From contig DAOUMV010000014.1 of NCBI GenBank assembly GCA_034408935.1, positions 32,564 to 96,563 on the forward strand: a DNA stretch of 64,000 bases, in the 5' to 3' direction. This document shows, one piece after another, positions 10,421 to 48,003 of the stretch. Below the pieces are notes generated by a model, which saw nothing but the letters and a program-made list of their open reading frames with translations, did no database searches and had not been told where the DNA came from. This stretch comes from Dehalococcoidia bacterium (lineage in GTDB: Bacteria > Chloroflexota > Dehalococcoidia > SM23-28-2 > RBG-16-64-32). Each line of letters opens with the position of its first letter. Position 1 is the first letter of the stretch. A program made the position numbers and the translations under genes.

Positions 10421-10422
10421 CT

Positions 10423-13022: not shown

Positions 13023-13202
13023 GGGCGCTCCTTCGGCTGCTTGGCCGCAGTTCGGGGCGGATGATACAACAAGGCGGGAACGTGGAACAAGGAAGGGGGA
13101 CCAGAGCTGGCCCAGCCCTGACCTCGGAGTCAGAGCGAATCTCGTGTTGCGGGTTCCCTGTTCTTGTCCCCTCTGCTACAATGCGGCTCGCTGGAAACTC
13201 TC

Positions 13203-13970: not shown

Positions 13971-13994
13971 TACTGGAGGAGGTGACCACCCTAG

Positions 13995-14255: not shown

Positions 14256-14352
14256 TCCATCCATCCGTAGCTCAAGGCCCCTGCCTTGAGCGTGTTTGCG
14301 GGCACGGCTGGGGCTTCGCCCTACGGAACCAGACGATCAGAGGTGGCCGTCA

Positions 14353-14592: not shown

Positions 14593-14611
14593 CGCGGGAC
14601 AGAGAACTCCA

Positions 14612-15391
14612 TTGTTCGAGACCCTCCTTTACGAGAAGACGGACGGTATCGCCTGGATAGTCCTCAACCGTCCGGACGTGCTCAACGCCATCAACATGCG
14701 CATGCGCGACGAGCTGTGGGAGCTGATACACGCCGTCCGCGACGACCCTGAGGTGCAGATCGCCATCTTCAAGGGCGCGGGCGAGCGGGCGTTCTCCGCC
14801 GGGGCGGACATCACCGAGTTCGGCACGGCGCCCTCCTACGTCGAGTCGCGGCGGGCCCGACGCCAGCGCGACCTGTGGGGCTTCATGCTCTCGATGGACA
14901 AGCCCCTCATAGCCGCCATCCACGGCTTAGCCCTCGGTGCCGGCGTCGAGCTCCCCCTGTGCTGTGACGTTCGCATCGCCAGCGAGGACGCCCGCCTGGG
15001 GTTGCCCGAGGTCAGCATCGGCTACATCCCCTCGGCCGGCGGCACCCAGACCCTGCCCCGCCACATCCCACCGGGGGTCGCTATGCACATGACCCTCACC
15101 GGCGACCCCATCGACGCTGCGACGGCCCTGCGCTACGGCCTCGTCCAGCGGGTAGTCCCCCGCCAGCGGCTGTACCAGGAGGCCGAGTCGCTGGCGCGCA
15201 CGCTCATGTCGCGGGGGCCGCTGGCGCTACGACTGGCCAAGCGGGCCGTGCTCGAGGGGCTGGACCTGCCCCTGGCGCAGGGGCTGGCCCTGGAGCGCCG
15301 CCTTGCCCGCCGCGCCCTGGCCAGCGCCGACGCTCAAGAAGGTATCGCCGCGGCCGCTGCTGGCCGCCAGCCGCGCTTCTCGGGCGCGTGA
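14612..15391 (+). CDS. enoyl-CoA hydratase/isomerase family protein
   Basis: 259 aa. IAWIVLNRPDVLNAIN...AFSAGADITEF crotonase motifs. Confidence 0.85.
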   Translation: MFETLLYEKTDGIAWIVLNRPDVLNAINMRMRDELWELIHAVRDDPEVQIAIFKGAGERAFSAGADITEFGTAPSYVESRRARRQRDLWGFMLSMDKPLIAAIHGLALGAGVELPLCCDVRIASEDARLGLPEVSIGYIPSAGGTQTLPRHIPPGVAMHMTLTGDPIDAATALRYGLVQRVVPRQRLYQEAESLARTLMSRGPLALRLAKRAVLEGLDLPLAQGLALERRLARRALASADAQEGIAAAAAGRQPRFSGA

Positions 15392-15416
15392 CCACGTAAC
15401 CAAAGGGAGGTAGAGG

Positions 15417-16979
15417 ATGAATACATCTGAGTTCCTGATGATCGCCGCCTCGGTGGTCCCGGACCGTCTCGCCATGGCCTGTGACGGCGACAGCCGCACC
15501 TTCGCCCAGCTCCAGGAGAGGGTGAACCGACTGGCCAACGCCCTTCAGTCGCTGGGCGTGGGCAAAGGCGACAAGGTAGCAGTCCTGGCCCTCAACTCCA
15601 TCCCCTACGTGGAGACCTACTACGCCTGCGCCAAGCTGGGCGCCGTCTTCGTCCCCCTCAACTATCGCGCCAAGAAGGAAGAGCTCTCCTACATGGTCAA
15701 TAACGCCGAGGCGAAGGTCATGTTTGTAGGGGAGCGCTACCTGGACCTCACCGCCGCCATCCGGCCTCAGTTCCAGACCGTGCAGCACTTCGTCTGCTAC
15801 GACGCCCACCCCGAGGACATGACCCCCTACGAGGATCTCCTGGCGCCCCACGAGCCGGAGGAGGTCTTCACCGACGTCGACGACACGGACGCCACGATCA
15901 TCCTCTACACCAGCGGCACCACGGCCAGGCCCAAGGGCGTCCTCCTCACCTACCTCAGCATGTCCGTGTACGTCACCAACACGGTGGAGCCTGCCAACCC
16001 GGAGGTCCACGACGTCACCCTCCTCTCCGTCCCCGTCTATCACGTGGCCGGTGCCACCGCCATCCTGTCGTCCGTATGGGGCGGACGCACCCTGGCTATC
16101 CTTCCCCAGTTCGAGCCTCAGGCCTGGCTGAAGGCCGTCCAGACCCATCGCGTCACCCATAGCTTCGTCGTGCCTACCATGCTCAAGCGAGTCATGGAGG
16201 AGCCGGACTTCGACAAGTACGACCTGATCTCGCTGCAGCTCATCGCCTATGGCGCCGCCCCCATGCCCTACGACGTCGTCACCAAGGCCATCGAGGTGTT
16301 CCAGTGCGGCCTCATGAACGCCTACGGGCAGACCGAGAGCACCTCCACCCTCACCTTCCTGGGCCCCGAAGACCATCAGATCCCCGACGGCCCCCCGGAG
16401 GAGCGCGAGAAGAAGCTCCACCGTCTCCGCTCCGTCGGCCGCGCCATGGAGGACGTCGTCGTCGCCATCGTCGACTCACAGGGCGAAGTCCTGCCGCCGG
16501 GCCAGGAGGGGGAGATCGTGGCCCAGGGGGCGCGCCTCATGTCCGGCTACCTCGGCCTGCACGACGAAACGGACGAGGCGATGCGCGGCGGCTGGCTCCA
16601 CACCGGCGACATCGGCTGGATGGACGACGACGGCTACATCTACATCACCGGCCGCACCAAGGACCTGATCATCCGCGGCGGCGAGAACATCGCCACGGGC
16701 GAGATCGAGGCCGTGCTGGAGCAGCACCCGGCGGTGGGTGAGGCGGCTGTCATCGGTGTTCCCGACGTCGAGTGGGGGGAGGAGGTGAAGGCTGTCATCG
16801 TGGCAGAGAGCGGAGACAAGCCCTCTACGGAGGAGCTGACGACCTTTGTCAAGGAGCGGCTGGCCAGCTATAAGGCGCCCAAGTACTACGCCTTCACGCA
16901 GGAGCTGCCCCGGAACTACCTGGGTAAGGTGCTGAAGACAGACCTGCGAAAGCAGTACGGGGAGGCCAAGGACGACTAG
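15417..16979 (+). CDS. AMP-dependent acyl-CoA synthetase/ligase (FadD-like)
   Basis: 520 aa. ILYTSGTTARPKGV AMP-binding motif, GEI...YGQTE, and C-terminal ...GKVLKTDLRKQY. SD AAAGGGAGG upstream. Confidence 0.9.
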   Translation: MNTSEFLMIAASVVPDRLAMACDGDSRTFAQLQERVNRLANALQSLGVGKGDKVAVLALNSIPYVETYYACAKLGAVFVPLNYRAKKEELSYMVNNAEAKVMFVGERYLDLTAAIRPQFQTVQHFVCYDAHPEDMTPYEDLLAPHEPEEVFTDVDDTDATIILYTSGTTARPKGVLLTYLSMSVYVTNTVEPANPEVHDVTLLSVPVYHVAGATAILSSVWGGRTLAILPQFEPQAWLKAVQTHRVTHSFVVPTMLKRVMEEPDFDKYDLISLQLIAYGAAPMPYDVVTKAIEVFQCGLMNAYGQTESTSTLTFLGPEDHQIPDGPPEEREKKLHRLRSVGRAMEDVVVAIVDSQGEVLPPGQEGEIVAQGARLMSGYLGLHDETDEAMRGGWLHTGDIGWMDDDGYIYITGRTKDLIIRGGENIATGEIEAVLEQHPAVGEAAVIGVPDVEWGEEVKAVIVAESGDKPSTEELTTFVKERLASYKAPKYYAFTQELPRNYLGKVLKTDLRKQYGEAKDD

Positions 16980-34128: not shown

Positions 34129-35160
34129 CTACTCCCATAGCCCCTTCTGGAGCTGCTGCGGCACCTCCAGCCCCAGGTGCCCGTAGGCATGGCGCGTCGC
34201 CACCCGCCCCCGGGGCGTGCGCTGGAGAAACCCCACCTGCATCAGGTACGGCTCGTACACGTCCATGATGGTGTCCGCCTCCTCCGAGATGGAGGCGGCG
34301 ATCGTCTCGATGCCCACGGGCCCCCCATCGAACTTCTCGATGATCGTGTGCAGCACCTTGTGGTCCACCTCGTCCAGCCCCATCTCGTCCACATCCAGGC
34401 GGGCCAGCGCCTCCCGGGCCACCTCCGGCGTGATCACGCCCTCCGCCCGCACCTGCGCGTAGTCCCGCACCCGACGCAGCAGCCGGTTGGCCACGCGCGG
34501 CGTGCCCCGCGACCGCCGAGCGATCTCGCCCGCGCCCTCACCCTCGATCGGGATGCCGAGTATCGCGGCGCTCCGCGCCACGATGGCGGCGATCGCCTCC
34601 TGGTCGTAGAAGTCCAAGCGGTAGACAGCCCCGAAGCGGTCCCGAAGCGGCGGGCTCAGCATCGCGTAGCGCGTGGTCGCCCCGATGAACGTGAAGCGCG
34701 GCACCGACAGGCGGACGCTGCGGGCGCCCGGCCCCCGCCCCAGCACGATGTCCAACGCGAAGTCCTCCATCGCCGGGTACAGCACCTCCTCCGCCGCCCG
34801 CGGCAGCCGGTGCACCTCATCGATGAACAGCACGTCGTGCTCCTGGAGGTTCGTGAGGATCGCCGCCAGGTCCCCCGCCCGCTCGATCGCAGGACCCGAC
34901 GTCACCCGGATAGACACCGACATCTCGTGGGCGACGATGTGGGCCAGCGTCGTCTTGCCCAGCCCCGGCGGCCCGTACAGTAGCAGGTGATCCAGCGCCT
35001 CCTGACGTTGCTGGGCTGCGGCGATGCCGATGCTCAGGTTGTCCTTCAGTTTCTCCTGACCGATGAACTCCTCCAGCCGACGCGGCCGCAGGGTAGTGTC
35101 CAGCGCCAGGTCGTCCTCTTGGAGCTTCCCGGAGGTGATCCGCGTCTCCGCGCTGTCCAT
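34129..35160 (-). CDS. ruvB: Holliday junction branch migration DNA helicase RuvB
   Basis: 343 aa. [19 protein letters not shown]...[22 protein letters not shown]...[10 protein letters not shown], full-length collinear with RuvB. Confidence 0.95.
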
Positions 35161-35523: not shown

Positions 35524-37500
35524 TCACACCCCTCCCAGGCTCAGCCGCTGCTCGTACAACGAGCGCATGCCTGTGGCGCCGTGCCTGCCGGCAGGCAGGT
35601 AGCAAAGCTCGATCCCAAGCACCCGTCGCCTCTCCCCGCTGAGGCCGGCGCCCCCGTCCGTCACCTCGATCACGTCGTACAGCTCCTGGCCGCAGTTCAC
35701 CGGCACCGCGATCTCCCCGTCCGCCGCAGCCAGCGCCGCCTTGCGAAGCACCGCATCGCCCCGGTCCTCCGCCTGCCCCACGCTCGTCAGGTTCAGGTCG
35801 TGCACCTGCACCAGACGGTCGTACACGGCCTCCACCCCGGGCCAGTCCAGCCGTTCCGCGAACACCTCGTCGCCGAACACCTGCGCCCGGTTCGGCTCGA
35901 CCGCGCCCGCCCGATAGCGCCCGCGCAGGAGGGCGTGCTCCGCGCCGTAGGCGTAGGCGGCTGACTCCGCGGCCAGCGGCTCCTTGAGGAACGCGAACTC
36001 GCCCTGCAGGTAGACCACGTCCGGCAAGAACGCCAGCAGCCGACCCACCGCCGTCAGCCCCGACTCCCCCGGGTGCACCGTGAACGCCGGGTACAGGTTT
36101 GCCGATTCGCTGCTGCCCCCCGCCGACGAGAACTCCAGCCCGGCCCGCGCGAACAGGAACCGCAGGATCCCGAACACGTTCCTCTCCCCGGCCGCCCAGG
36201 CGTACTGCCGTCGCGCCCGCCAAGCCGCCAACAGCCCCCAGCCGTCGCTGCCGTGCAGGACGACCGCCGCCTGTCCGCCCCCGGAGACCAGCTCCACGCC
36301 GTCCACCCAGTAGGCGGGCCCGTACGACGCCTGCGGGCCGCTGCCCGTCACGTAGCCCGGGCTCACGCGCACCTCCGTGCCCGCTTTCAGCAGCGACAAC
36401 TCGGTGTAGCGGCCGTCGTCGTTGCGCAGAACCAGCCGCAGCCGCGCGCCGACCGGGCGCTCCTCCGCGGCCGCCTCCAGCACGTCCGCCGTCACGTCCA
36501 GCGGCTCCGTGTCCAGAGCCGCTGTCCACACCCCCGACGGCGCCGAAAGCCACAGCGCCGCCCCGCTATGCGCCACCGCCAGACCGTACTCGCACCCGAA
36601 GTCGAACGGCACTGGCTCCCGCCACAGGTTGTCCGCGTACGCCGCCGTCGCCGGCGAGTAGCTATGGTAGGGCCGTGAGTACGCCTGCGTCCCTGTGTAC
36701 TTCTCGACGAACGTCAGGCGGAAGGTGTCGGGCCGGCCCAGGAACGGGGCCCGGAATCCCACCGACGACCCGCTGCTCGCACGCATCACCTCCGATAGGG
36801 ACGACCACGCGCCCACCGGCTGCGAGAAACCGTCACCGTAGATCGTCGTCCACACGAAGCCGTTGCCGTCCGCATCTCCACCCGCTACCACTACGTTGTA
36901 GTCGGCGGCGTAGTGGCAGGCCAGGCCACTGACGGCGGCGACCGTGTTGCTCCAGGCCGTCACGCTCCCCCAGCTTCCGCTGCTGCGCTTCACCGCGTAC
37001 ACCGTCCCGTCGACCGAGTACACCAGCACCGCGTCCCCGTTCGACTTCACGTCGGCGGCCAGCCACGTGACGTCGCCCACGGCCGACACCACCGTCACCG
37101 GCGATCCCAGGGACGCCCCGTGGTCGCTGCTCTCCCGCGCCTTAACGTCCCGGCCGTTCGTGTCCACGTAGAACAGGAGCACGCTCGACCCCTCGCTGCA
37201 CAGCGCCACGTCCGCGTCGGCGACCGCCCCCAGGTCCGTCCACGACGAGAAGTCGCTAGTCGGCCCGGGATCCGTCACCCGCTGGTAGTACAGTCGACCA
37301 GAGGCGACCCGCGCCCGCAGCAGCGACCCATCCGAAGGCATCGTCGCCGCGTGGTACCCGTCCGGCTCCGACCCGTTGTACAGCCGCTCGAACCCCAGGC
37401 GCGCTATGCCGCCGATGCAGTCGGCGACGGTGACCCTGAGGTAGGGGACGGCGGAGGTGCTGCGCTGGGCGGCCAGCAGCTCCGGCGACAGGCTGCGCAT
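35524..37500 (-). CDS. large hypothetical protein (658 aa), no recognisable family
   Basis: Long ORF with protein-like composition. No signal peptide. Ser/Gly-rich beta-rich segments. No motif recognised. Confidence 0.55.
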   Translation of the reverse strand: MRSLSPELLAAQRSTSAVPYLRVTVADCIGGIARLGFERLYNGSEPDGYHAATMPSDGSLLRARVASGRLYYQRVTDPGPTSDFSSWTDLGAVADADVALCSEGSSVLLFYVDTNGRDVKARESSDHGASLGSPVTVVSAVGDVTWLAADVKSNGDAVLVYSVDGTVYAVKRSSGSWGSVTAWSNTVAAVSGLACHYAADYNVVVAGGDADGNGFVWTTIYGDGFSQPVGAWSSLSEVMRASSGSSVGFRAPFLGRPDTFRLTFVEKYTGTQAYSRPYHSYSPATAAYADNLWREPVPFDFGCEYGLAVAHSGAALWLSAPSGVWTAALDTEPLDVTADVLEAAAEERPVGARLRLVLRNDDGRYTELSLLKAGTEVRVSPGYVTGSGPQASYGPAYWVDGVELVSGGGQAAVVLHGSDGWGLLAAWRARRQYAWAAGERNVFGILRFLFARAGLEFSSAGGSSESANLYPAFTVHPGESGLTAVGRLLAFLPDVVYLQGEFAFLKEPLAAESAAYAYGAEHALLRGRYRAGAVEPNRAQVFGDEVFAERLDWPGVEAVYDRLVQVHDLNLTSVGQAEDRGDAVLRKAALAAADGEIAVPVNCGQELYDVIEVTDGGAGLSGERRRVLGIELCYLPAGRHGATGMRSLYEQRLSLGGV

Positions 37501-37734
37501 AGCGACCGCATCCTACGCCCCGCGCCGCGCTATCTGTAAGGGGAGAGTGGCAGACCGCGCTTCCCCCTCCCGTAGGTCGAGGCCCCAGCCTCGACCGTCC
37601 CTTCCCGCTCAGGGCGAGCGGGCGTCTACGGCGTGTAGCCCGTATTCAACGTCAGCGGCACTGCCCTCGTGATCTCGTCAATGCGTACGCCCATCGTCCG
37701 CGTGATCCCTACGGGATCAGCAGCGCGTCAGGCT

Positions 37735-38034: not shown

Positions 38035-39951
38035 CTACTCGCAGCCCGCCCCGAACACCGGCGGCAGCACCGGGAACACGTCCCCCAGGTTGATTAGGCC
38101 GTCCGGTGATAGATCCGCCCGCGGGCTCCAGTCGGCAATGCCATCACCATTCGTGTCGGGGTTCGACGGACTGGAGCCGAAGTACGGCGGGAGCACGCTA
38201 AACAGGTCCGCGAGGTTGATGATCTGGTTATCGTCAAAGTCCGCAGGCCACTTGTCATCCCCCTCATCACCAGGGTTCGCCGTGTCCGCACAGGGGTCCG
38301 CTGGGTCCGTACCGATTACGCCCTCGTCCGTGTCCGTGAACCCGTCGCCGTCGCTGTCGCCGCAGGGGCCGCCAACCACCACCTCGCCGCTCAGCACAGT
38401 GTTCGCCGCGAGCTCAGCGTACCCCGAAGCGGTCCCGGCAACCAGCATGAGGTCCACGTAGCCGTCCTGGCCGCCTAGCGTACTGGGGATGAGGAGCGGG
38501 CTCGTGCCGGTGCCCACAGCCGTCACTGTGATCCTCGCCAGCACGCCGTCCCCGCTCTCGTGGTTGTCCGGGGGAGGTGGGGAGATCGTTCCGTCTGCGG
38601 CCACAAACGTTGCCGAGTTTGGGTTCCACTGCGTGTCGCTATTGGAGAGGAAGCCAGCACCGCCTCTGCTGTCGATGCGAGAGAGGATGGTCACATCGTC
38701 CGGTGGCGTCGAACCGGCCGCGTCGACGTCGATGAAGTCCCAAGAATCCTCATCGATCATGGTATCCAAATCATTGTCAATGAAGTCGACGGGGTCCTCG
38801 TCGATTAGCGTGTCCCCGTCATCGTCAATGCCGATCTGTATCACGGCTGGGTCGTAGTCGATATCGATCTGGTAGCCCTTAATCCTGTCAGCGGGGTCGA
38901 CCCCCTTGATGACGAGATCGAAGGTGTGGGTGTCACCGACAGCGGCGATCTCTCCGCAGTTCTCGATCGTGCCGACGGTGCTGTCGTCGTTGCCCGTGGT
39001 GTCCATGTCGATCGCCACCAGATCGACAGTGCTGAGCGGAGGCGTGGGCGTGGGCGTAGACGTAGGCGTAGTGGGCGTAGGCGTAGGTGTAGGCGTCGGT
39101 GCGGGCGTAGCCGTAGGCGTGGGCGCCGGTGTGGGCGTAGGCGTCGGCGTAGGGGTAGGCGGCGGTGGCGTGGGGACCACGCACGGCTCGCCCACGGACA
39201 CGGCGCCGATCTGCACGGCGTTCACCGGAACGGGCAGGTGCTTCAGTGGCCCGTCTCCAGCCATGAGCATGAGGTCAACGAAGCCATCCTGGCCCCCGGA
39301 GGGCCCGGGAACGATGAGGCCGCTCGTGCCGGTGCCCACGGCCGTCACCGTGATCCTTGCCAGCACCCCCTCACCGCTCTCGTGGTTGTCCGGGGGAGGT
39401 GGGGAGATCGTTAGGTCTGCGGCCACAAACGTTGCCGAGTTTGGGTTCCACTGCGTGTCGCTAATGGAGATGAAGCCAGCACCGCCTCTGCTGTCGATGC
39501 GAGACAGGATGGTCACATCGTCCGGTGGCGTCGAACCGGCCGCGTCGACGTCGATGAAGTCCCAGGGGTCCTCGTCGATCTGGGTGTCCCCGTCATCGTC
39601 GATGGAGTAGGGGTCGACGGGGTCCTCGTCAAACAACGTGTCGCCGTCATCGTCGATGCCGATGCGTATCACGCTCGGGTCGTAGTCGATATCGATCTGG
39701 TATCCAGCGATCTTGTCGACAGGGTCCACGCCCTTGACCACGAGGTCAAACGTATGGGTCTCGCCGACTGTGGACATCTCGTAGCACTGCTCTATCGTGC
39801 CCACCGTGCTGTCGTCGTTGCCCGTGATGTCCATGTCGATGGCCACCAAGTCGATGGCGCCGGGCAAGGCGGCAGTTGAGCGGATCGAAAGCAGCCCAGC
39901 AAACATTGCCAGCGCCGCCAGGCCGGTCAGCAGAAGTCCTGTGTATCGCAT
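38035..39951 (-). CDS. secreted surface protein P1: two tandem cohesin-like modules (each with acidic DDDGD Ca-binding insert) + PT linker + TSP3-like repeat + C-terminal dockerin-like Cys-terminated module
   Basis: MRYTGLLLTGLAALAMF signal peptide. Two copies of VDLVAIDMDTTGNDDSTVGTIE.C...THTFDLV.KGVDP.D.I.GYQIDIDYDP.VI.I...GVLARITVTAVGTGTS (cohesin-like strand pattern). C-terminal DFDDNQIINLADLFSVLPPYFGSS...DTNGDGIADWS...PDGLINLGDVFPVLPPVFGAGCE. Confidence 0.75.
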   Translation of the reverse strand: MRYTGLLLTGLAALAMFAGLLSIRSTAALPGAIDLVAIDMDITGNDDSTVGTIEQCYEMSTVGETHTFDLVVKGVDPVDKIAGYQIDIDYDPSVIRIGIDDDGDTLFDEDPVDPYSIDDDGDTQIDEDPWDFIDVDAAGSTPPDDVTILSRIDSRGGAGFISISDTQWNPNSATFVAADLTISPPPPDNHESGEGVLARITVTAVGTGTSGLIVPGPSGGQDGFVDLMLMAGDGPLKHLPVPVNAVQIGAVSVGEPCVVPTPPPPTPTPTPTPTPAPTPTATPAPTPTPTPTPTTPTSTPTPTPPLSTVDLVAIDMDTTGNDDSTVGTIENCGEIAAVGDTHTFDLVIKGVDPADRIKGYQIDIDYDPAVIQIGIDDDGDTLIDEDPVDFIDNDLDTMIDEDSWDFIDVDAAGSTPPDDVTILSRIDSRGGAGFLSNSDTQWNPNSATFVAADGTISPPPPDNHESGDGVLARITVTAVGTGTSPLLIPSTLGGQDGYVDLMLVAGTASGYAELAANTVLSGEVVVGGPCGDSDGDGFTDTDEGVIGTDPADPCADTANPGDEGDDKWPADFDDNQIINLADLFSVLPPYFGSSPSNPDTNGDGIADWSPRADLSPDGLINLGDVFPVLPPVFGAGCE

Positions 39952-39970
39952 ACTCTACCCCCTATGCGGG

Positions 39971-42196
39971 CTACTCGCAGCTTGAGCCGAACACCGGCGG
40001 CAGCAACGGGAACACGTCACCGAGGTTGATGAAGCCGTCCGGGACCAGGTCTCTCCGAGGGCTCCAGTCAGGGATGGTATCACCATTCGTATCGGGCACG
40101 TCTGGGCTTGAGCCGAAGTGCGGCGGGAGCACGTTGAACAGGTCGCCGAGGTTGATCAGCGTGCTCATGTCGAAGTCCGACGGCCAGGCGTCGTCCGTCG
40201 GGTCATCGGGGCAGTTGTCCACAGGGTCCGTGCCGACCAATACCTCGACGCCATCGGCGAACCCGTCGTAGTCGCCGTCGCCCTCCAGCCCCAGCACTGA
40301 GACCTTCCCCGCCACGCCGGGGTTGCTCAGGTGTGTGACGTATGCGCGGTTGATCTCGGGGTTGACCGCAATGCCTTCCGCTTGGGGATCGAGGGTGATG
40401 GCGGACGTCACGGTACTGGTCGCCCCATCAATAACCTTGAGCACGCCCGGGCCGGTGGCAGGCCCGTCGGTCACGTAGATGCGATTAGCGGCGGAGTCAA
40501 CGCCGATACCCTGGACAAAGCCCCCACTGGGCTGGTTTGTATCCATCGGCAGAACGGCCAGGACCTCCTCGCTGTCGCCGTCGACCACGGATACGCTCCC
40601 CTGTTCGTACACGTCGGTGGCCACACCGGCCACATAGATGCGATCGGTCAGGGGATTCACGGCCACGGCGGCGGGGTACAGGCCCGAATCCAGAGGGATT
40701 GTTGAGATCACACTGTTAGTGGCACCGTCGATCACTGACATCGAGTCGTCCGCCGCGTTGGCAACGTAGACGCGGCCGGTGATCGAGTTCACGTCGATTC
40801 CGGTCGGGAACCCCCCCACCGCGATCGTGGCCAGCACCGCGCCGGTGCTGCCGTCAACAGCCGCCACGACGTTGTCCACGATACTGGTCGCGTAGACACG
40901 GTCCGTCTCGCTGTTCACGGCTAGGCCAATACCCGCCAGGAAGCTCAGCCCCAGCGGAATAGTGTCGATCACCGCGTATGTAGCTCCGTCTATCACCGAG
41001 AGCGAAGTGGGTGGAAGGCCGTTTCCCACGTAGATACGGTTGGTGCTGGTGTTCACGGCGATGCTCTGCGGCCCGTCCGCCACAGCGATGGTGGTGATGA
41101 CGTCATGAGTTACGCTGTCGATAACCGAGACCGTGTCATCGTGGTAGTTCGCCACGTAGATGCGGTCGTCTTCGGGGTTGACCGCCGCGCCCATGGGCCC
41201 GGCACCCACATCTATCACGTCGATGAGCTGTGGTGGCATCGGCGTCGCCGTTGGCGTGGGTGTGGGCTCCGTGGGCGTAGGTGTGGGCTCCGTGGGCGTA
41301 GGTGTCGGCGTTGGCGTAGGTGTCGGCGTCGTCGTGGGTGTGGGAGTCGGAGTCGGGGTCGGGGTAACGGTAGGTGCCGGAGTCGGGGTCGGACTTGGGG
41401 CGGGTCCCGGGGTGGGCGTGGGAGTGGGCGCGGTGACGACGCACGGCTCGCCCACGGACACGGCGCCGACCTGCACTGTGCTCACCGGAACGGGCGTCCC
41501 CTCCAGTGGCCCATCTCCTGCGATCAGCATGAGGTTAACGAAGCCGTCGTAACCCCCGGACGGCCCCGGAACGATGAGGCCGCTGGTGCCGGTGCCCACG
41601 GCCTCGATGGTGATCCTGGCCAGCACGCCGTCACCGGACTCGTGGTTGGCTGGGGCGGGCGGCGTATTCGTGGCATCGGCGGCCGTGGGCGTGATCGAGC
41701 CGTCGCTATCCGGCATGGGGTCGGCGATGTGGGTTATGGGCACGAAGTCACCGCCGCCGCTGCTGTCTATGCGGGAGAGGATCGTGACGTTGTCGGGTGG
41801 GGTCGAACCCGCGGCGTCAACGTCGAGAACCGAGATGATCTTGATCACGCTCGGGTCGTAATCGATATCGACCTGATAGCCCTTGATCTTGTCGACGGGG
41901 TCGATCCCCTTGACAACGAGGTCAAACGTATGGGTCTCGCCCACTGTCGACATCTCGTGGCACTGCTCTATCGTGCCCACCGTGCTGTCGTCGTTGCCCA
42001 CCGTGTCCATGTCGATGGCGACGAGGGTCACGTCTCCGGGACCGGCCCGGGCGACATCACGTTCACCAAGCAGCGTCGTGAGGCCGAGCACGGTGACCGC
42101 TAGCAGGACGCCCATGAGGAGGGAAGCGAGCACTACTCGTCTCGCGGGGCGGTTCACTACCCCCGACCCCAGCAGCAGCATCCGCAAATATCGCAT
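39971..42196 (-). CDS. secreted surface protein P2: cohesin-like module + PT linker + YVTN-type beta-propeller repeats + TSP3-like repeat + C-terminal dockerin-like module
   Basis: Start set at MRYLRMLLLGSG (M14 of the listed ORF, by analogy with P1 and P3). One cohesin-like module. Repeats of RIYVANYHDDTVSVIDSVTHDVITTIAV type (YVTN family). C-terminal DFDMSTLINLGDLFNVLPPHFGSS...DTNGDTIPDWS...PDGFINLGDVFPLLPPVFGSSCE. Confidence 0.75.
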   Translation of the reverse strand: MRYLRMLLLGSGVVNRPARRVVLASLLMGVLLAVTVLGLTTLLGERDVARAGPGDVTLVAIDMDTVGNDDSTVGTIEQCHEMSTVGETHTFDLVVKGIDPVDKIKGYQVDIDYDPSVIKIISVLDVDAAGSTPPDNVTILSRIDSSGGGDFVPITHIADPMPDSDGSITPTAADATNTPPAPANHESGDGVLARITIEAVGTGTSGLIVPGPSGGYDGFVNLMLIAGDGPLEGTPVPVSTVQVGAVSVGEPCVVTAPTPTPTPGPAPSPTPTPAPTVTPTPTPTPTPTTTPTPTPTPTPTPTEPTPTPTEPTPTPTATPMPPQLIDVIDVGAGPMGAAVNPEDDRIYVANYHDDTVSVIDSVTHDVITTIAVADGPQSIAVNTSTNRIYVGNGLPPTSLSVIDGATYAVIDTIPLGLSFLAGIGLAVNSETDRVYATSIVDNVVAAVDGSTGAVLATIAVGGFPTGIDVNSITGRVYVANAADDSMSVIDGATNSVISTIPLDSGLYPAAVAVNPLTDRIYVAGVATDVYEQGSVSVVDGDSEEVLAVLPMDTNQPSGGFVQGIGVDSAANRIYVTDGPATGPGVLKVIDGATSTVTSAITLDPQAEGIAVNPEINRAYVTHLSNPGVAGKVSVLGLEGDGDYDGFADGVEVLVGTDPVDNCPDDPTDDAWPSDFDMSTLINLGDLFNVLPPHFGSSPDVPDTNGDTIPDWSPRRDLVPDGFINLGDVFPLLPPVFGSSCE

Positions 42197-42292
42197 GGCA
42201 AACCCCCTTGGAAGCGCCCTTCCGGGCGCCCTCATTGTACGCCCCTGCTATGGGCTGTCAAGCGCCGCTCTCAACTTCTCCGGCCCCAGTGC

Positions 42293-44014
42293 CTACGGCG
42301 TGCAGCTTGAGCCGAACGTCGGCGGCAGCACCATGAACACGTCCCCCAGGTTGATGAAGCCGTCCGGCGCCAGGTCTCGCCGGACACTCCAGTCGATGAC
42401 GCCGTCACCATTCGTGTCGGGGTTCGATGGACTGGAGCCGAAGTACGGCGGGAGGACGTTGAACAGATCCCCGAGGTCGATCAGAGTGCTCATGTCGAAG
42501 TCGCACGGCCAGGCGTCGTCCATCTGGTCATCCGGGCAGTTGTCCACAGGGTCAGTGCCGATGTACGTCTCCGCGTAGTCGTCGTACCAGTCGCCATCGC
42601 AATCCCGGATACCCGGGCATGGGTCGCAGACATCGCCCAGGTTATCACCATCGCCGTCCTCCTGATCCGGATTGACAGCGCCCGGACAGTTGTCGATGTG
42701 ATCCAGGAAGCCGTCGCAGTCCGCGTCAAGCCGGCAGTGCTCGTAAGCCCCCATGTCACAGGCAGCGCTGCCGTTCCCGTCACCATCGACGGGCCGGGCG
42801 ATCCCTCTCTGATCCGCGGCGGGACAGCACGTGTCGTCTCCAGCGTCTATCGCGGGACTGCCCGCCAGGAGAGCGTGGGTCCTGGTAGAACCACCGTTGT
42901 CCTCAAGCGGGCCCATCTGCGGATCCACGTTGCTGAGATCGCCCGTCGCGGTGAAGCCACAGGAACCGTCGCTGTCCAGGTTGTGCCCCTGCGACCAGAC
43001 AACGCCGTCGCAATCGCCTCCCGACGGGTTGGCGCCCACGATGGTATTCTTGGCCATCACGGAGCTGTATGTGGTGTTGTGGATTCCTCCCCCTGCCTGA
43101 CCGGCCGTATTGTCGCTGACCGTCGTGTTCGTGATCGTCAGGTAGGCCGGCACAGCCGGGTCGCACGGGACCTCGGGAGGGCAGAACAACGCTAGGGCCT
43201 GATTGCCGATGCCGCCGCCGTAGGCTCCCGCGTCGGTGGCCGCGTTGCCGCTGACCGTGACATTGGTGAGCGTCACCGCGCCACCCAGGTTGCGGATGCC
43301 GCCGCCGATGCCGTTCGCGCCGGTGACGGTGTTACCGCTGACGGTAGTGTCCACCATCTCAACGTCGCCCAGTCGGTTGTAGACGCCGCCGCCGCCCCCC
43401 CACTCTCCGCCAACCGTGTTGTTGCTCACGGTACTGCTGCCCACCGTCAGCGTCCCGCGGTTCGCTATGCCGCCGCCGCTACCGCCCAACCAGACGACAG
43501 GGTCGTCAGCCGCGTTCCCGCTGACGCTAACGAGGGTGAGCGTGAGCGCTCCGAAGTTGAGGATGCCGCCGCCGTCGCCCACGGTGCGGCCGCCCTGCAC
43601 GGTCACGCCGGTGATCTCCGCCGCGACGGACCCCGTCACGGAAAAGACGCGGTCAATCCCGCCGCCGTCAATGACCGTAGTGTCCGCACCGGCGCCCGTC
43701 ACCGTCAGGTCGTCGGTGATGTCCAGATCGCCGGTGGCTGCGCCACCTTCTGGTACCCCGGTGATACTCAGAGCGTAGATACCAGCCGGAAGGGTGATCG
43801 TATCCGCGCCGGCGTAGGCGTTCGCCTCCTGGATGGCCGCCCGCAGCGTACAATTGCCAGCGCCGTCATCGCAGGCGCCGTCGCCGGGAATCGCATCCAC
43901 GGCATCAGCGGTCGAGTCTACTGTGAACGTTGACGCGTAGGCGTCGTGGCCCCCGCCGACTAGCAGTGTCCCCGCTGCCAGCAGCCCCAACAGGGAAAAT
44001 CGTAAGTATCGCAT
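42293..44014 (-). CDS. secreted surface protein P3: CSLREA-type N-terminal motif + right-handed beta-helix (Gly-rich) repeats + Cys-rich TSP3-like Ca-binding repeats + C-terminal dockerin-like module
   Basis: Start set at MRYLRFSLLGLLAAG. FTVDSTADAVDAIPGDGACDDGAGNCTLRAAIQEANA (CSLREA motif). GGGI/NxxxV beta-helix repeats. DxDxDGxxD Cys-rich repeats. C-terminal DFDMSTLIDLGDLFNVLPPYFGSS...DTNGDGVIDWS...PDGFINLGDVFMVLPPTFGSSCTP. Confidence 0.75.
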   Translation of the reverse strand: MRYLRFSLLGLLAAGTLLVGGGHDAYASTFTVDSTADAVDAIPGDGACDDGAGNCTLRAAIQEANAYAGADTITLPAGIYALSITGVPEGGAATGDLDITDDLTVTGAGADTTVIDGGGIDRVFSVTGSVAAEITGVTVQGGRTVGDGGGILNFGALTLTLVSVSGNAADDPVVWLGGSGGGIANRGTLTVGSSTVSNNTVGGEWGGGGGVYNRLGDVEMVDTTVSGNTVTGANGIGGGIRNLGGAVTLTNVTVSGNAATDAGAYGGGIGNQALALFCPPEVPCDPAVPAYLTITNTTVSDNTAGQAGGGIHNTTYSSVMAKNTIVGANPSGGDCDGVVWSQGHNLDSDGSCGFTATGDLSNVDPQMGPLEDNGGSTRTHALLAGSPAIDAGDDTCCPAADQRGIARPVDGDGNGSAACDMGAYEHCRLDADCDGFLDHIDNCPGAVNPDQEDGDGDNLGDVCDPCPGIRDCDGDWYDDYAETYIGTDPVDNCPDDQMDDAWPCDFDMSTLIDLGDLFNVLPPYFGSSPSNPDTNGDGVIDWSVRRDLAPDGFINLGDVFMVLPPTFGSSCTP

Positions 44015-44164
44015 GCCCGCCCCTCCAGGCGCTTCCATTGTACGCCCCTCTTATGGGCTGTCAAGCGCCTTTCCGGTGCCCCCTGACACATCCCCCTTAC
44101 AGGTGCAGAACGCGCGTTCTAGCATGGGTCACAGTCAAATCCCACTCAAGGAGGTTCCCGCCCC

Positions 44165-45052
44165 ATGGCCCTCACCCTCGCAGAAGCAGCAAAGCTCTCC
44201 AACGACGTCCTCCTTATCGGCGTCATCGAGACCATCATCAAGGACTCACCCATCCTCCAGCGCATGCCCTTCATCGAGATCGTCGGCAACGGCCTCACCT
44301 ACAACCGCGAGGCCACCGCTCCCTCCGCCGGCTTCTTCGACGTCGGCGACACCTGGACCGAGTCCACGCCCACCTTCACCCAGCAGACCGTCACCCTCAA
44401 GATCATGGGCGGCGACGCTGACATCGACAACTTCCTCATCGCCACCCGCTCCAACCTCCAGGACCTCCAGTCCGCCGTCGTCCAGCTCAAGGCCAAGGCC
44501 GTCCAGCAGCTCTTCGAACAGACCTTCATCACCGGCGACGCCACCACCAACCCCAAGGAGTTCGACGGCCTGGACGAGCTCACCGACCCCTCGCAGGAGC
44601 TCTCGATGGGGGCCAACGGCGGCTCCCTAACCCTCGACAAGCTGGACGAGCTCATCGACACCGTCAAAGGCGGCAAGCCCAGCCTCTTCCTCATGAGCCG
44701 GCGCTCCCGGCGCATCCTCAACAAACTCGCCCGCACCGCCGGCTCCTTCCTGGAGACCGACCGCGACGAGTTCGGTCAGATGCTCCAGTTCTACGACGGC
44801 ATCCCCATCGGCGTCTCCGACTACATCGCCGACGACCAGACCCAGGGCACCAGCAGCGACTGCTCCACCATCTACACCTTCCAGATGGGCGAAGGCGCCC
44901 TGGTGGGCCTCACAGCCCCCGGCGGCCTGCAGGTGGAGCGCGTCGGCTCCTTGGAGAGCAAGGACGCCAGCCGCACCCGCATCAAGTGGTACGCGTCGCT
45001 GGCCCTGTTCAACGCCGTCAAGCTGGCCCGCCTCATCGGAGTACGCCCGTAG
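44165..45052 (+). CDS. phage major-capsid-like protein (putative HK97-fold), family not pinned down
   Basis: 295 aa. MALTLAEAAKLSNDVLLIGVIETIIKDSPILQRMPFIEIVGNGLTYNRE... Size, amphipathic N-terminus and neighbours (connector-like gene downstream, strong hairpin right after the stop) suggest a capsid subunit. Assignment from memory only. Confidence 0.45.
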   Translation: MALTLAEAAKLSNDVLLIGVIETIIKDSPILQRMPFIEIVGNGLTYNREATAPSAGFFDVGDTWTESTPTFTQQTVTLKIMGGDADIDNFLIATRSNLQDLQSAVVQLKAKAVQQLFEQTFITGDATTNPKEFDGLDELTDPSQELSMGANGGSLTLDKLDELIDTVKGGKPSLFLMSRRSRRILNKLARTAGSFLETDRDEFGQMLQFYDGIPIGVSDYIADDQTQGTSSDCSTIYTFQMGEGALVGLTAPGGLQVERVGSLESKDASRTRIKWYASLALFNAVKLARLIGVRP

Positions 45053-45063
45053 TCGGCTGGGCT

Positions 45064-45139
45064 TGGGCCGGCCCGACCCATTCGTCCTGAGCCTGCCCTG
45101 AGCTTGTCGAAGGGCCTGTCGAAGGATCGGGCCGGCCCA
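45064..45139 (+). terminator. large stem-loop (13-bp perfect IR tgggccggcccga...tcgggccggccca) followed by a second small hairpin cagggc-tgaa-gccctg
   Basis: Read directly. Placement immediately after the capsid-like gene resembles attenuating terminators after phage MCP genes. No U-tract, so function uncertain. Confidence 0.4.
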
Positions 45140-45202
45140 GAGCAGGGCTGAAGCCCTGCAACTACGGGCCCCGGCGCCGGCACGAGGCTCAGAGGAGAAG
45201 CT

Positions 45203-45775
45203 GTGACCGTCCTCAAGAAGGCCATCATCAAGTCCTACGCCGCCGCCGAGCACAAGGCGACGGTGCAGATCGCCGGCTCCCTCGGCGTCTGGCTGGACGG
45301 CATCCGCGTGGCTACCGACATCCCCGCCGCCGACGTCGTCGCCGGCCGTCAATGCACCGTCCTCTTCCTCGATCCGTCCAACCAGGACGACGCCGTCGTC
45401 ATCACCATCCAGGGCGCTCTGCCCAGCGCTGGTGCCGGCTCCAGCCACGCCCCCATCGGCGCGTGCTACCCAGGCGTCCTATCCGTCTCCACCCCCAACG
45501 CCGTCGCCCCCCAGGTCCCCTACCGAGGCGCCGCCTTTACCATCGACAAGCTCTACTGCCGCCTCGCCGTCGCCCCCCAGCTCCAGGACGCCAAGGTCAA
45601 GATATGGCGCAACGGCACCAGCATGGGCGAAGTCACCATCACCAAGAGCACCAAGGCCGGCGAGCTCGACGTCAACGTCCCCGTCTCCAGCGGCGACTAC
45701 TTCGAGGCCGAGATCACCCAGACCGGCATAACCCCCAACGAAGGCTCCGACCTCGTATGGCTATGCGTTCCCTGA
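45203..45775 (+). CDS. hypothetical protein (phage-structural neighbourhood)
   Basis: 190 aa. GTG start preceded by AGGAGAAG. No motif recognised. Confidence 0.45.
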   Translation: MTVLKKAIIKSYAAAEHKATVQIAGSLGVWLDGIRVATDIPAADVVAGRQCTVLFLDPSNQDDAVVITIQGALPSAGAGSSHAPIGACYPGVLSVSTPNAVAPQVPYRGAAFTIDKLYCRLAVAPQLQDAKVKIWRNGTSMGEVTITKSTKAGELDVNVPVSSGDYFEAEITQTGITPNEGSDLVWLCVP

Positions 45776-46260
45776 CCCTGCGCGAGGCCACCGACGCTGA
45801 CCTCCGCCCCTTCCACGCCCTCGCCATCAAGGTCTGGAGCCAGCTCGGCGTCGCCTTCGACCCTGACTTCGCCCGCTTCCGCCGCATCCGTGACGGCCGC
45901 CACCGCATCGTCGTCCTCTGGCAGGACGACCAGCTCGTCGCCGCCCTCGTCGCCATCCCCATCGCCACCGACCGAGGCCCCGGCTTCGAGATCAAAGCCT
46001 TCGTCGTCGACCAGGACCTCCAAGACAAGACTACCCTCCTCGACGCCCTCAGCCTCTACGCCATGAACATCGCCCTCGCCGAGGGCCGCACCATCGTCGT
46101 CAGCCACCGTCCCCGCCGCATCGCCGGCACCGTCTACGGCCGCGACAAGCTCGGCATGGACACCACCCGGGGCGACGACGCATACATCCACCAGATCGGC
46201 TACGCCCCCGACATGATGGCCCGCATCTTCCAGCGGCACCCCGAATGGCAATTACCCTAG
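45757..46260 (+). CDS. hypothetical protein (phage-structural neighbourhood)
   Basis: Start set at MAMRSLTLREATDADLRPF within the listed longer ORF, whose N-terminal 135 aa are R/H/P-rich nonsense. Overlaps the upstream gene by 19 nt. Confidence 0.4.
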   Translation: MAMRSLTLREATDADLRPFHALAIKVWSQLGVAFDPDFARFRRIRDGRHRIVVLWQDDQLVAALVAIPIATDRGPGFEIKAFVVDQDLQDKTTLLDALSLYAMNIALAEGRTIVVSHRPRRIAGTVYGRDKLGMDTTRGDDAYIHQIGYAPDMMARIFQRHPEWQLP

Positions 46261-47126
46261 TCCACGACTGCGACGTGGAGCGCCGCGCCAGCCCCACCGC
46301 CCTCAACGGCGACTGGCGCGACTGCTACCTCGAAGAACTCGGCGCCAACAACACCCACGACGGCACGCAGATCGCCGCCGGCATCCAGAACGTCGCTGGC
46401 AAGAACTACAACGAGCGCAGGGCCCTGCTCCTCTTCAACCTCACCAAGTTCATCCCCGCCGGTGCCACCATCACCACCGCCGTCTGGCACTTCTACGTCC
46501 TCTCCACCACAACCACCGGCTTCATGACCTTCACCGCCTACCGCATCCGCCGCCACGACTGGAAGGAGGACGAGGCCACCTGGAACGCCTTCAAGGAACC
46601 CTGGGACTCCGGCGACGCCGAGAGTGGGGGCAACAACACGCTCACCGACACCGACAAGTCCTGGACCACCGACGAATGGAAGAACATGTGGGTCCGCATC
46701 ACCGCCGGCACCGGTGCCGGGCAGTTCCGCACCGTCACCGGAAACAACGGCACTACCCTCACCGTAACCCCCAACTGGGCCACCAACCCCGACAGCACCA
46801 GCCTCTACGTCGTCGGCCAGCTCTGGCAAGGCGCCGGCGCCTCCAACACCGCCCAGGACCGCGACCAGTCCGTCTCCGCTGCCCTCGGCCCGCTGAACAC
46901 CACCGGCTGGAAGGCCAAGACCGTCACCGCCCTCGTCACCGACGCCTGGAGCAACCGCAGCGGCATCTGCACCTTCATCGTCGAGCGCACTGACACCCTC
47001 ACCACCACCGTCGGCGAAGCCTACATCGACGCCAAGAACGCCTATCCCTACGCCCCCGAGCGCGTCCACCACCTGCGCGTCACCTACGCCCTCGACGGCA
47101 AGACGTTCCAGGTCATGGTCCGCTAG
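46245..47126 (+). CDS. hypothetical protein (phage-structural neighbourhood), Thr/Asn-rich
   Basis: 293 aa. Overlaps the previous stop. No motif recognised. Confidence 0.45.
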   Translation: MAITLVHDCDVERRASPTALNGDWRDCYLEELGANNTHDGTQIAAGIQNVAGKNYNERRALLLFNLTKFIPAGATITTAVWHFYVLSTTTTGFMTFTAYRIRRHDWKEDEATWNAFKEPWDSGDAESGGNNTLTDTDKSWTTDEWKNMWVRITAGTGAGQFRTVTGNNGTTLTVTPNWATNPDSTSLYVVGQLWQGAGASNTAQDRDQSVSAALGPLNTTGWKAKTVTALVTDAWSNRSGICTFIVERTDTLTTTVGEAYIDAKNAYPYAPERVHHLRVTYALDGKTFQVMVR

Positions 47127-47367
47127 CACGACACATGCCTGCATTGAGCGAAATGAAATGATCGGTCCACTCGCCACCGCCCACGCCCACCTCGCGGCCG
47201 TTGTGATCAGGCCACCACCCAGACCGATCTCACGCTCGCCCAGCGAGCCGTCGTGCCCTATTCCAGCCCAGTGAGACCGGCCTGTTCGGGAGTCCTGGAC
47301 AGCGTTGCGCCGGAGGCACATCAGCCTCCAGCTCAACGGGACAAGTCAAGAACGAAGGGAATAAGAG

Positions 47368-48003
47368 ATGAACCTAAGTGACATGCGCGACCGCCTGCGC
47401 AAGGACCTGCACGACGAGGATGCTGCCAACCAGCGCTGGACAGATGCTGAGCTGGACCGCCACATCGGGCGCGCCGTCCGCGAATTCAGCCTCTCGGTGC
47501 CGCTGGAGACGAAGGCCACCCTCAGCGCTACCGCCGATAGCCGTGACCTATCTGTCGCCGGACTTGCCGATCTGGTGGCCATCGAGGCGGTGGAGTACCC
47601 GGTGGGCAACTACCCGCCCTCCTACGTGCCCTTCTCCGTCTGGCTCTCCACCCTCACCATGCTCATCGACTCGCCCCCCGACGCCGTCGAGGATGTCGAT
47701 GTCTACTACACCAAGCTCCATACCCTGGACGCGACGACATCGACGCTGCCCGCGCGGTTCGAGGACGTAGTAGCGACGGGAGCCGCCGCCTACGCCGCCC
47801 TGGAGTGGGCTTCCTTCGCGACCAACCGGGTGAACGTAGGCGGGCAGGACGTCTGGCGCGACTACCTGACGTGGGGCCAACAGCGGCTGGCAGAGTTCCA
47901 GCGGGCGCTGGCCCGCCACGGCCGCCGCAACACCGTCCGCGTGCGGCAGCTCTACCGCGCGGCCACCACGCCCGTGGACCAGTCGACGGTCACGGGGCCG
48001 TAG
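47368..48003 (+). CDS. phage head-tail connector/adaptor-like protein
   Basis: MNLSDMRDRLRKDLHDEDAANQRWTDAELDRHIGRAVREFS. The N-terminus resembles gp6-type connector proteins (hxLEExKxHLRID..DD motif). SD GAAGGGAAT. Confidence 0.4.
   Translation: MNLSDMRDRLRKDLHDEDAANQRWTDAELDRHIGRAVREFSLSVPLETKATLSATADSRDLSVAGLADLVAIEAVEYPVGNYPPSYVPFSVWLSTLTMLIDSPPDAVEDVDVYYTKLHTLDATTSTLPARFEDVVATGAAAYAALEWASFATNRVNVGGQDVWRDYLTWGQQRLAEFQRALARHGRRNTVRVRQLYRAATTPVDQSTVTGP

Follow-up and report, generated by a model that had tools for sequence, protein, structure and literature searches.

The 64,000-nt window analysed here comes from a Dehalococcoidia bacterium of the phylum Chloroflexota (positions 32,564 to 96,563 of the forward strand of contig DAOUMV010000014.1, assembly GCA_034408935.1) and carries a group of five phage-like genes on its plus strand. 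They encode a major capsid protein (MCP) with the HK97 fold (44165-45052, 295 aa), a putative short fibre or knob protein, g2 (45203-45775, 190 aa), a weakly GNAT-like protein, g3 (45757-46260, 167 aa), a putative carbohydrate-binding, fibre-associated protein, g4 (46245-47126, 293 aa), and a head-tail adaptor (47368-48003, 211 aa). We suggest that this is one operon of a phage-derived particle system that was probably domesticated by its host and has descended with it.

The original prediction, made by a model from the letters of the window, had placed five open reading frames at these coordinates and described them as tightly packed. Both statements hold: g2 shares 19 nt with g3, which in turn shares 16 nt with g4, and an independent gene caller returned the same five products (295, 190, 167, 293 and 211 aa) from L135, which is a second public assembly of the same genome (GCA_964417775.1; related loci are denoted by L numbers throughout). 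The composition is native, as had been supposed. GC content at third codon positions (GC3) of the five genes is 0.87-0.94, and regional GC content is 0.645-0.685, like the rest of the window, which is GC-rich throughout (about 0.66).

Genes and regulatory elements of the window

The first product had been called capsid-like, and it is indeed an MCP. It matches phrog_212 over aa 1-293 (E=2.5e-73) and exceeds the curated cutoffs of Pfam GP7 (PF20911; 33 bits, cutoff 27), Pfam Phage_capsid (PF05065; 31.7 bits, cutoff 24.2) and NCBIfam MCP_gp7_epsi_15 (NF045672; 201.5 bits, cutoff 75). The match is full-length and assigns the protein to the HK97-fold MCPs of the epsilon15 gp7 type; none of the encapsulin families in Pfam or NCBIfam was matched. 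MCP is the most conserved and the most codon-biased gene of the set. Its GC3 is 0.94, and its synonymous divergence (dS) is mostly below that of its neighbours (adaptor and ruvB), falling to about half of it in the closest comparisons. The low dS and the high GC3 together suggest strong codon selection, from very high expression or some other constraint on the mRNA.

The window and the second assembly of the same genome differ by 13 substitutions across 19.8 kb and are otherwise identical. All 13 substitutions, four of them amino-acid changing, fall within 168 bp about halfway along the capsid gene (44590-44757 in the window, 10426-10593 in L135). Either the assembler mixed strains in the most conserved gene, or this stretch is a short recombination tract.

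Directly 3´ of the MCP stop codon, stem-loops occupy 45064-45159 on the plus strand. The inverted repeat that had been noticed here is real. Its arms (45064-45079 and 45124-45139) match over 16 nt at 94%, with a perfect core of 13 nt, and fold as a long GC-rich stem with a second hairpin behind it (about 45142-45159). When the window and related loci were considered together, a perfect stem of at least 10 bp within 100 nt 3´ of the stop was found in 44% of 79 MCP genes versus 5% of 721 others (p about 1e-18). The median folding energy after the stop is -46.6 kcal/mol for MCP genes versus -35.3 kcal/mol for the others (p=6e-13). The hairpin is kept across loci as a structure, not as a sequence. 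It probably serves as a partial terminator or as a stabiliser of the mRNA 3´ end, which would set a high ratio of capsid to downstream products.

The last gene of the operon had been described as connector- or adaptor-like, again correctly: aa 1-190 of its product align with positions 1-191 of the 194 in the Pfam profile SU10_adaptor (PF24175; 39.1 bits, cutoff 27), a full-length match. The adaptor gene adjoins the MCP gene in 33 related loci. In the window it is preceded by a 241-nt non-coding gap (47127-47367) in an otherwise overlapping operon. Relatives encode a coiled-coil protein of 80-96 aa (family c8) at this position; neither a remnant of c8 nor a copy of the promoter motif described below is detectable in the gap.

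Between MCP and adaptor lies the fibre cassette. The g2 protein has no family match, and its AlphaFold2 model is of high confidence (predicted local distance difference test, pLDDT, 91). It consists of a five-stranded beta-barrel anchor (aa 1-75), a Gly-rich linker and a C-terminal jelly roll (aa 85-190). By Foldseek, the jelly roll is closest to trimeric C1q/TNF heads, a weak match (E about 1e-4, TM-scores 0.3-0.44), and it also resembles the lambda central fibre, fibres of Agrobacterium phage 7-7-1 and the phi812 spike, again with weak scores. The N-terminal domain equals the N-terminus of the fibres of family c5 in related loci as well as the stand-alone 70-aa protein c9 (E=1.6e-22 with the c9 hidden Markov model, HMM); a profile search of this domain against PDB sequences gave nothing meaningful. 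In the protein search g2 matches 351 cluster representatives. Most of the 150 listed share only the N-terminal domain, and these relatives range from 100 to 800 aa with unrelated C-termini; the C-terminal domain of g2 is also found on other proteins. The g2 protein is an anchor with a swappable tip, the classic design of a receptor-binding protein.

The other two products of the cassette are less easily classified. The GNAT matches of g3 are below threshold (Acetyltransf_9, E=0.007; phrog_1249, E=0.024); its GC3 is 0.92. The g4 protein barely passes Pfam CBM96 (27.4 bits, cutoff 26), and its residues 122-190 are 55-57% identical to a 479-aa protein that adjoins a tail-fibre gene on an IMG/VR phage contig (L123), with like matches in L127, L129 and L133. 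The syntenic locus L003 has an MCP 97% identical to that of the window, yet the C-terminal domain of g2, g3 and g4 are only 56-58% identical between the two (56% for g3). The ratio of nonsynonymous to synonymous substitution rates (dN/dS) is 0.64-0.80 in this comparison, with 0.73 for g3 and 0.80 for g4. The cassette is modular and evolves fast.

The operon is preceded by a promoter-operator at 44083-44127 of the plus strand. It comprises an upstream element TGACACATCCCCC, a -35-like TTACAG (44097-44102), a -10-like TAGCAT (44120-44125) and, between these two, the palindromic box AGAACGCGCGTTCT (44107-44120); a GGAGG ribosome-binding site for MCP follows at 44150-44154. The box overlaps the promoter and holds the sole exact copy of GAAC-N4-GTTC in 64 kb, 46 nt upstream of the MCP start. 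On a position weight matrix of the promoter from related loci, the window site scores 48.8 bits versus a shuffle maximum of 5.4. The matrix has about 48 sites in the related loci, nearly all oriented with the cluster genes. Almost all stand before operons of the cluster, that is before MCP, the scaffold, the large terminase subunit TerL, the gene pair for a helix-turn-helix (HTH) protein and the portal, and the gene c3 discussed below (including c3 in L022). When aligned, the promoters read TGACAC-N3-CCCCTTGAC(A/G)-N6-7-AGAAC-N4-GTTC-TAT(C/T)CT; the box takes up the spacer and directly borders the -10 element. The extended form AGAAC-N4-GTTCTA is intergenic and lies immediately upstream of MCP, the scaffold, TerL/c54 or HTH-portal, and unextended exact motifs fall mostly within unrelated coding sequence, which looks like chance.

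We take GAAC-N4-GTTC to be the LexA box of Gram-positive bacteria and Dehalococcoides, an assignment of the motif that has reportedly been in print since 2002. An exact box also stands 57 nt upstream of ruvB in L031. Non-cluster boxes were checked for SOS genes, which gave this ruvB and a ComM-like gene in L071; the rest are mostly intra-coding and chance-like. We lean, by a little, to LexA as the protein that binds the box, over the cluster's own HTH protein, which may act at the upstream element instead. In L015 a copy of the promoter-operator precedes a gene for a 157-aa protein, which is followed by a gene for an extracytoplasmic-function (ECF) type sigma-70 factor (5803-7365, about 4 kb from the capsid gene). 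In some genomes the regulon may include this unit as a further, regulatory member.

A second part of the system lies apart from the operon. The gene c3 (35524-37500, minus strand, 658 aa) is displaced 6.6 kb upstream in this lineage. Its upstream/-35 element TGCCACTCTCCCCTTACAG (37534-37552, minus strand) aligns with that of the MCP promoter and has no GAAC/GTTC box; the c3 and MCP sites are the only matches to this element in the window, with 0.25 expected. In L002, L017, L020-24, L031 and other loci, c3 stands directly downstream of the adaptor gene. Because it shares the promoter element and adjoins the adaptor gene in relatives, we count c3 as part of the system. Its 735 homologues are about 652 aa long and have no Pfam domain, and a profile search against PDB sequences gave nothing meaningful. 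The AlphaFold2 model (pLDDT 68) has a confident N-terminal beta-propeller. Foldseek matches it to lectin and sialidase propellers and to the baseplate hub gp44 of phage Mu (1wru, E=2.5e-6), further to a viral "tail protein", a "43 kDa tail protein", a type VI secretion system component and minor tail proteins; it is the C-terminal half that resembles the Mu hub and the "43 kDa tail protein". With moderate confidence, c3 can be regarded as a nozzle- or hub-like tail-tip protein.

The original prediction had also considered the whole region from 35 to 48 kb as one accessory island. Its inclusion of c3 was borne out, and its island character was not: the region is ancestral and linked to ruvB (34129-35160, minus strand; Pfam RuvB_N, AAA_lid_4 and RuvB_C), a host gene that marks the conserved chromosomal position and is no component of the system, and it was not acquired horizontally. 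The three surface genes between c3 and MCP (38035-44038, minus strand) are lineage-specific insertions. They encode proteins of 638 aa (cohesin and TSP3 repeat), 754 aa (NHL/beta-propeller) and 581 aa (Gly-rich, without a Pfam match), and share internal paralogous segments with 79-89% nucleotide identity. Homologues of the 581-aa protein also occur near the capsid gene in L015 and L017. We rejected an island that includes the surface genes, as these are oppositely oriented, have their own sigma-70-like promoter and possess only scattered near-cluster homologues elsewhere.

The absence of an integrase, a terminase and a portal, which had been stated for the part in view, extends to the whole 64 kb. 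A Pfam scan of 45 gene products together with purpose-built family HMMs revealed no terminase, portal, protease or integrase, and neither TerL, portal and scaffold nor the families c8 and c25 of related loci were found by the family HMMs; ARAGORN found no tRNA and Rfam no family. Replication genes and recognised lysis enzymes are likewise missing from the Pfam annotation. Everything that Pfam recognises outside the five genes belongs to host metabolism, repair or the cell surface: CoA-transferases, enoyl-CoA hydratases, luciferase-like oxidoreductases, ABC exporters, a GH114 protein, RidA, RuvB, the three large surface proteins, a SnoaL-like protein, a CCG/Fe-S protein, a DegT aminotransferase, an Eis-like GNAT and a ClpB-like ATPase. 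A paralogous catabolic block at 2354-16979 is unrelated to the capsid system. It contains four family III CoA-transferases, three enoyl-CoA hydratases, two luciferase-like monooxygenases, one short-chain dehydrogenase and one AMP-dependent ligase.

Gene set and descent in related genomes

In related loci, genes were called, proteins were clustered and HMMs of the recurrent families (the c numbers used here) were mapped back, all by rough procedures. The recurrent order is c23, TerL (c11), the HTH gene (c18), the portal (c12), the scaffold (c2) and MCP, then in some loci c25, c5 or c8, followed by the adaptor, c3 (about 655 aa) and c9 (70 aa), with ruvB often 4-10 kb further on. The c23 protein (about 130 aa) is like the small terminase subunit TerS by position, c2 is a coiled-coil scaffold, c5 a fibre and c9 a small beta-barrel protein. 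The portal is readily recognised (Pfam SPP1_portal, 72.7 bits; phrog_64, E=1.8e-31). Family models see TerL weakly (Terminase_6C, 21.5 bits, cutoff 22.6; phrog_5909, E=7e-4), while nine sequences 52-58% identical to each other are invariant in Walker A (ARQxGKNE), Walker B (LLExDE), YGTxW and the nuclease residues D/D/HDD.

Portal and terminase genes of relatives are found 2-9 kb upstream of the capsid gene or at a second conserved locus, and their absence from the window is only local. The packaging, portal and scaffold genes of this genome must lie outside the 64 kb. The sublineage of the window has a split arrangement, with c3 and ruvB upstream of MCP, which is shared by L001, L012 and L016. 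In RBG_16_64_32 (MCP 91% identical, layout like that of the window), TerL and portal are on another contig, between HIT and luciferase-like genes. The packaging module of L138 has the same HIT and luciferase-like flanks, then rnpA-yidD-yidC-jag. This separated TerL-HTH-portal module keeps a neighbourhood of its own (L137, 1-8233; L138, 3210-18465), which in L138 is near the replication origin region. In many genomes host genes are interleaved with the cluster, for example a polysaccharide deacetylase and a BNR protein in L002 or a GGDEF cyclase in L031. In lower-GC relatives (GC content 0.45-0.58, MCP 50-66% identical) the cluster is compact, about 10 kb.

Directly after the portal there is a gene for 72-83 aa in several loci (L002, 2059-2277; L010, 7365-7616; L137, 6517-6735; L138, 11386-11619). 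Its product is hydrophobic in the L002 copy and has no family match; a holin-like release factor is possible.

The 10-kb flanks of the higher-identity loci show no integrase, replication gene or recognised lysis enzyme, and the window and the Pfam-annotated 20-kb loci L001, L002 and L135 show no integrase, alpA-type regulator or replication/primase gene. The most distant relative examined with flanks, L111 (MCP 50% identical, GC content 0.54), has a tyrosine recombinase and DUF5131 upstream of TerS-like and TerL genes (167-2791). Loci of this type may represent a mobile ancestor or a still-mobile cousin of the domesticated system.

The MCP has 5791 homologues in the protein search, the best 120 of which are all 295 aa long and 86-100% identical, several of them on contigs of 77-276 kb. 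In GTDB, with one genome per species, relatives are present in 285 species-representative genomes. The best 80 of these 285 are 70-94% identical and about 295 aa long, almost all carry the label of the Dehalococcoidia or of a different Chloroflexota group, and five are on complete chromosomes. L019 (MEYC01000092.1), with a typical cluster and an MCP 80% identical, bears the label "Candidatus Aminicenantes bacterium RBG_16_66_30"; probably a Chloroflexota contig was mis-binned here and the cluster has not moved to another phylum. The GC content of cluster-bearing contigs spans 0.45 to 0.73. Among cultured phages the nearest MCP is that of Clostridium phage FA70 (41% identity), with those of the Pseudomonas Ab18 group and Xanthomonas Xp15 also found, and the IMG/VR matches at least 60% identical to the MCP are all fragments of 4-13 kb.

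The cluster keeps its host neighbours, and its MCP has diverged along with RuvB. L001, a 276-kb JGI contig, shares the host flanks of the window, with RuvB, RidA and EamA to one side and the CCG Fe-S protein and Eis-like GNAT to the other; identities between the two are 89.8% for the MCP, 87.5% for RidA, 86% for RuvB, 79% for CCG and 75.5% for EamA. RuvB lies within 10 kb of MCP in 11 loci. In these, pairwise identities of MCP and RuvB are correlated (r=0.917, Mantel p about 2e-4), and mean identity is 0.79 for MCP and 0.75 for RuvB. The dN/dS ratio is 0.14-0.3 for MCP, 0.14-0.25 for the adaptor and 0.12-0.18 for RuvB in closer comparisons.

Nature of the proposed particle system

By definition, a gene transfer agent (GTA) or viriform is transmitted vertically within a cellular genome, derives its genes from caudoviricetes and forms tailed-phage-like particles; it encapsidates at best part of its own genome and is induced in a small subpopulation under host control (PMC9662315). 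Vertical transmission is what we find here, in the synteny with ruvB, in the co-divergence of MCP with RuvB (a gene that is itself linked to the cluster) and in the lack of an integrase and of tRNA genes. The lineage encodes MCP, scaffold, portal, TerL, adaptor and a tail-tip-like protein; no tail tube genes were found among them. A hint of induction under host control comes from the LexA-type box between the -35 and -10 elements of every operon. As the genes are spread over at least two loci in the lineage of the window, no single headful could carry all of them.

We therefore regard the five genes as the operon for capsid, fibre and adaptor within a domesticated and vertically inherited particle system of phage origin in the Dehalococcoidia, a reading in which we have fair, though far from complete, confidence. 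Its best form is an SOS-wired, DNA-packaging system that would produce short-tailed, GTA- or PBSX-like particles. Most likely these would carry host DNA, as gene transfer agents and PBSX do. A GTA-like element was one of three explanations offered by the original prediction and is the one we favour among them; the other two, a decayed prophage remnant and a domesticated HK97-fold nanocompartment, are contradicted by the data discussed below.

We propose the following mechanism. If the box between the -35 and -10 elements is a LexA operator, DNA damage would de-repress all operons together, and the cluster's HTH protein might activate them from the upstream element. The hairpin after MCP would then raise the amount of capsid protein over that of the downstream products. 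Scaffold, portal and MCP would build an epsilon15-like head, to be filled with DNA by TerL, and a short tail would be made of the adaptor, the c3 tail-tip protein and a beta-barrel plug. Docked through the shared beta-barrel domain, g2 might, together with g4, recognise carbohydrate on the cell surface by means of swappable tips.

The strongest competitor accepts the same domesticated particle and assigns it another use, as a PBSX-like killer, a bacteriocin-like weapon or some other non-transfer device, with SOS-triggered lysis and fibre-mediated damage to competitors. The LexA-type box on every operon resembles the control of SOS-induced defective prophages and bacteriocins. The fast-evolving, modular fibre cassette and the minimal tail, in which there is no obvious conduit for DNA delivery, would suit a weapon as well. 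On the other hand, catalytically intact TerL and the portal speak for selection on DNA packaging, neither a toxin nor a lysis module was identified, and known DNA-independent killers such as tailocins have lost their heads. We consider this explanation unlikely, while taking it seriously.

Still less probable is a small temperate phage or satellite of the capsid-forming phage-inducible chromosomal island (cf-PICI) type that remains mobile and integrates repeatedly near ruvB, its distribution reflecting infection. It would explain why IMG/VR classes many copies as viral, the compact clusters of lower-GC relatives, the recombinase of L111 and the presence of an own HTH regulator and promoter. 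Neither an ordinary prophage nor a satellite fits, because integrase, replication and recognised lysis genes are missing from the window and from the Pfam-annotated 20-kb loci, host genes are interleaved, the genes are split between two separately conserved loci and MCP co-diverges with RuvB, which it even exceeds in conservation. The wide range of GC content among carrier contigs and the distance to the nearest cultured phage speak against infection too. The window does not show the contiguous integrase, lysogeny control, replication, lysis and complete morphogenesis block of an intact prophage, nor the mobility and the flanking integrase, alpA and rep genes of a cf-PICI; a tyrosine recombinase appears only in the distant L111.

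An encapsulin-like compartment, or another shell without DNA made of MCP and scaffold only, is very improbable. Many distant loci do show only these two genes within 10 kb, and MCP is the gene with the strongest conservation and codon bias. Such a reading is unfit because portal, TerL and adaptor are present in relatives. TerL is intact there, and these genes are conserved under the same promoter, as is the scaffold. The MCP is of the epsilon15 type, and no cargo-type gene recurs next to it in related loci. The two marks of an encapsulin nanocompartment, a shell without portal and terminase and an adjacent cargo, are thus both lacking.

The least probable of all is a decaying, functionless prophage remnant that persists by chance: in the window the head module is partial (c8, c25 and the scaffold are missing locally), a gap precedes the adaptor gene and g2-g4 have high dN/dS, but the reading does not fit because of purifying selection on MCP and adaptor, the shared regulon and the intact catalytic motifs, to which intact reading frames of the same length across hundreds of species, lineage-wide synteny and the conservation of promoter and post-MCP hairpin can be added.

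Several points weigh against the domesticated particle system that we prefer. Firstly, portal, TerL and scaffold of this very genome were not located, none of them lying within the 64 kb, and in roughly every second one of the more distant loci scaffold and MCP alone are seen within 10 kb. Secondly, tail tube, tape measure, a recognised lysis enzyme and a prohead protease were not found in the window or related loci, so the particle may be incomplete or use other parts. Thirdly, since RuvB is linked to MCP, their co-divergence is equally expected from co-transfer of the whole region. The dN/dS of g2-g4 could mean relaxed constraint instead of diversification, the c3 model is only moderately confident (TM-scores 0.2-0.35, a weak fold match), and the identification of LexA comes from the motif and the ruvB site of L031, where the cluster's own HTH protein could be the binder. 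Finally, the functional side as a whole, that is particle, packaging and transfer, is inferred from sequence.

A bolder version of the domesticated particle system would be an independent, class-wide GTA-like viriform of Chloroflexota, in which SOS-triggered, short-tailed particles of the epsilon15 type bring host DNA packaged by the conserved TerL to relatives that are selected by rapidly swapping fibre tips. We put it forward tentatively and would not be surprised if it turned out wrong. If true, it would be the first such viriform in a group other than Proteobacteria, spirochaetes or archaea; it would also be the first dispersed gene set whose operons all carry a LexA-type operator.

To our knowledge, only few independently domesticated phage-particle systems have been recognised (RcGTA, BaGTA, VSH-1, Dd1, VTA and the PBSX-like particles), all of them through a phenotype in cultured organisms. 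We found no description of the present system in the literature on GTAs or domesticated capsids in Chloroflexi, Dehalococcoidia or Tepidiforma. It is maintained across a class of mostly uncultured bacteria of soil, groundwater and sludge and was found from sequence alone. Its genes are scattered among host genes and held together by one promoter-operator, and its capsid gene is conserved above ruvB. It offers a case for studying how a phage is dismantled and rewired into a host regulon. If particles are made, they would constitute a major unrecognised route of DNA exchange or antagonism in Chloroflexota, and virome surveys would be confounded, because IMG/VR files many copies as viruses.

Comparison with known systems

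The system has much in common with RcGTA of the Alphaproteobacteria (Rhodogtaviriformidae). In both, phage head and tail genes are fixed in the chromosome, inherited vertically and kept under purifying selection; both lack an integrase and a replication module, the "genome" is distributed over several loci, control is apparently of a cellular type and the fibre or spike is variable. RcGTA is controlled by CtrA, GafA and quorum sensing, whereas the Chloroflexota system, known here from its genes, has a LexA-type box on its operons. It further differs from RcGTA in its host phylum, in an MCP of the epsilon15 gp7 type (not compared with the RcGTA capsid protein) and in lacking genes for a tail tube and tape measure, its putative tail consisting of the short adaptor and the tail-tip protein.

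PBSX of Bacillus is an SOS-induced defective prophage whose particles package host DNA. Like PBSX, the present system resides in the chromosome, is conserved and, judging by its operators, apparently damage-inducible, and it comprises head and packaging genes. PBSX, however, forms one uninterrupted, myovirus-like element of about 28 kb, has a contractile tail and lysis genes and is limited to one genus, whereas the Chloroflexota system is dispersed, predicted to be short-tailed and class-wide.

Individual parts recall podophages. The MCP passes MCP_gp7_epsi_15, named after Salmonella phage epsilon15, the adaptor passes SU10_adaptor, named after E. coli phage SU10, and the gene order portal-scaffold-MCP-adaptor-large tail-tip protein is podovirus-like. 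Both phages differ in being autonomous viruses, equipped for replication and lysis and with a complete tail machinery. The nearest cultured MCPs (about 40%) belong to siphoviruses of about 56 kb, namely Clostridium phage FA70, Pseudomonas phage Ab18 and Xanthomonas phage Xp15.

Lastly, cf-PICIs are mobile, carry int, alpA and rep genes and depend on the tails of helper phages. The Chloroflexota system is similar to them in having its own capsid, portal, adaptor and packaging genes without a full phage, and it is set apart from them by the absence of an integrase and of a replication gene, by the host genes interleaved with its own and by its vertical descent.

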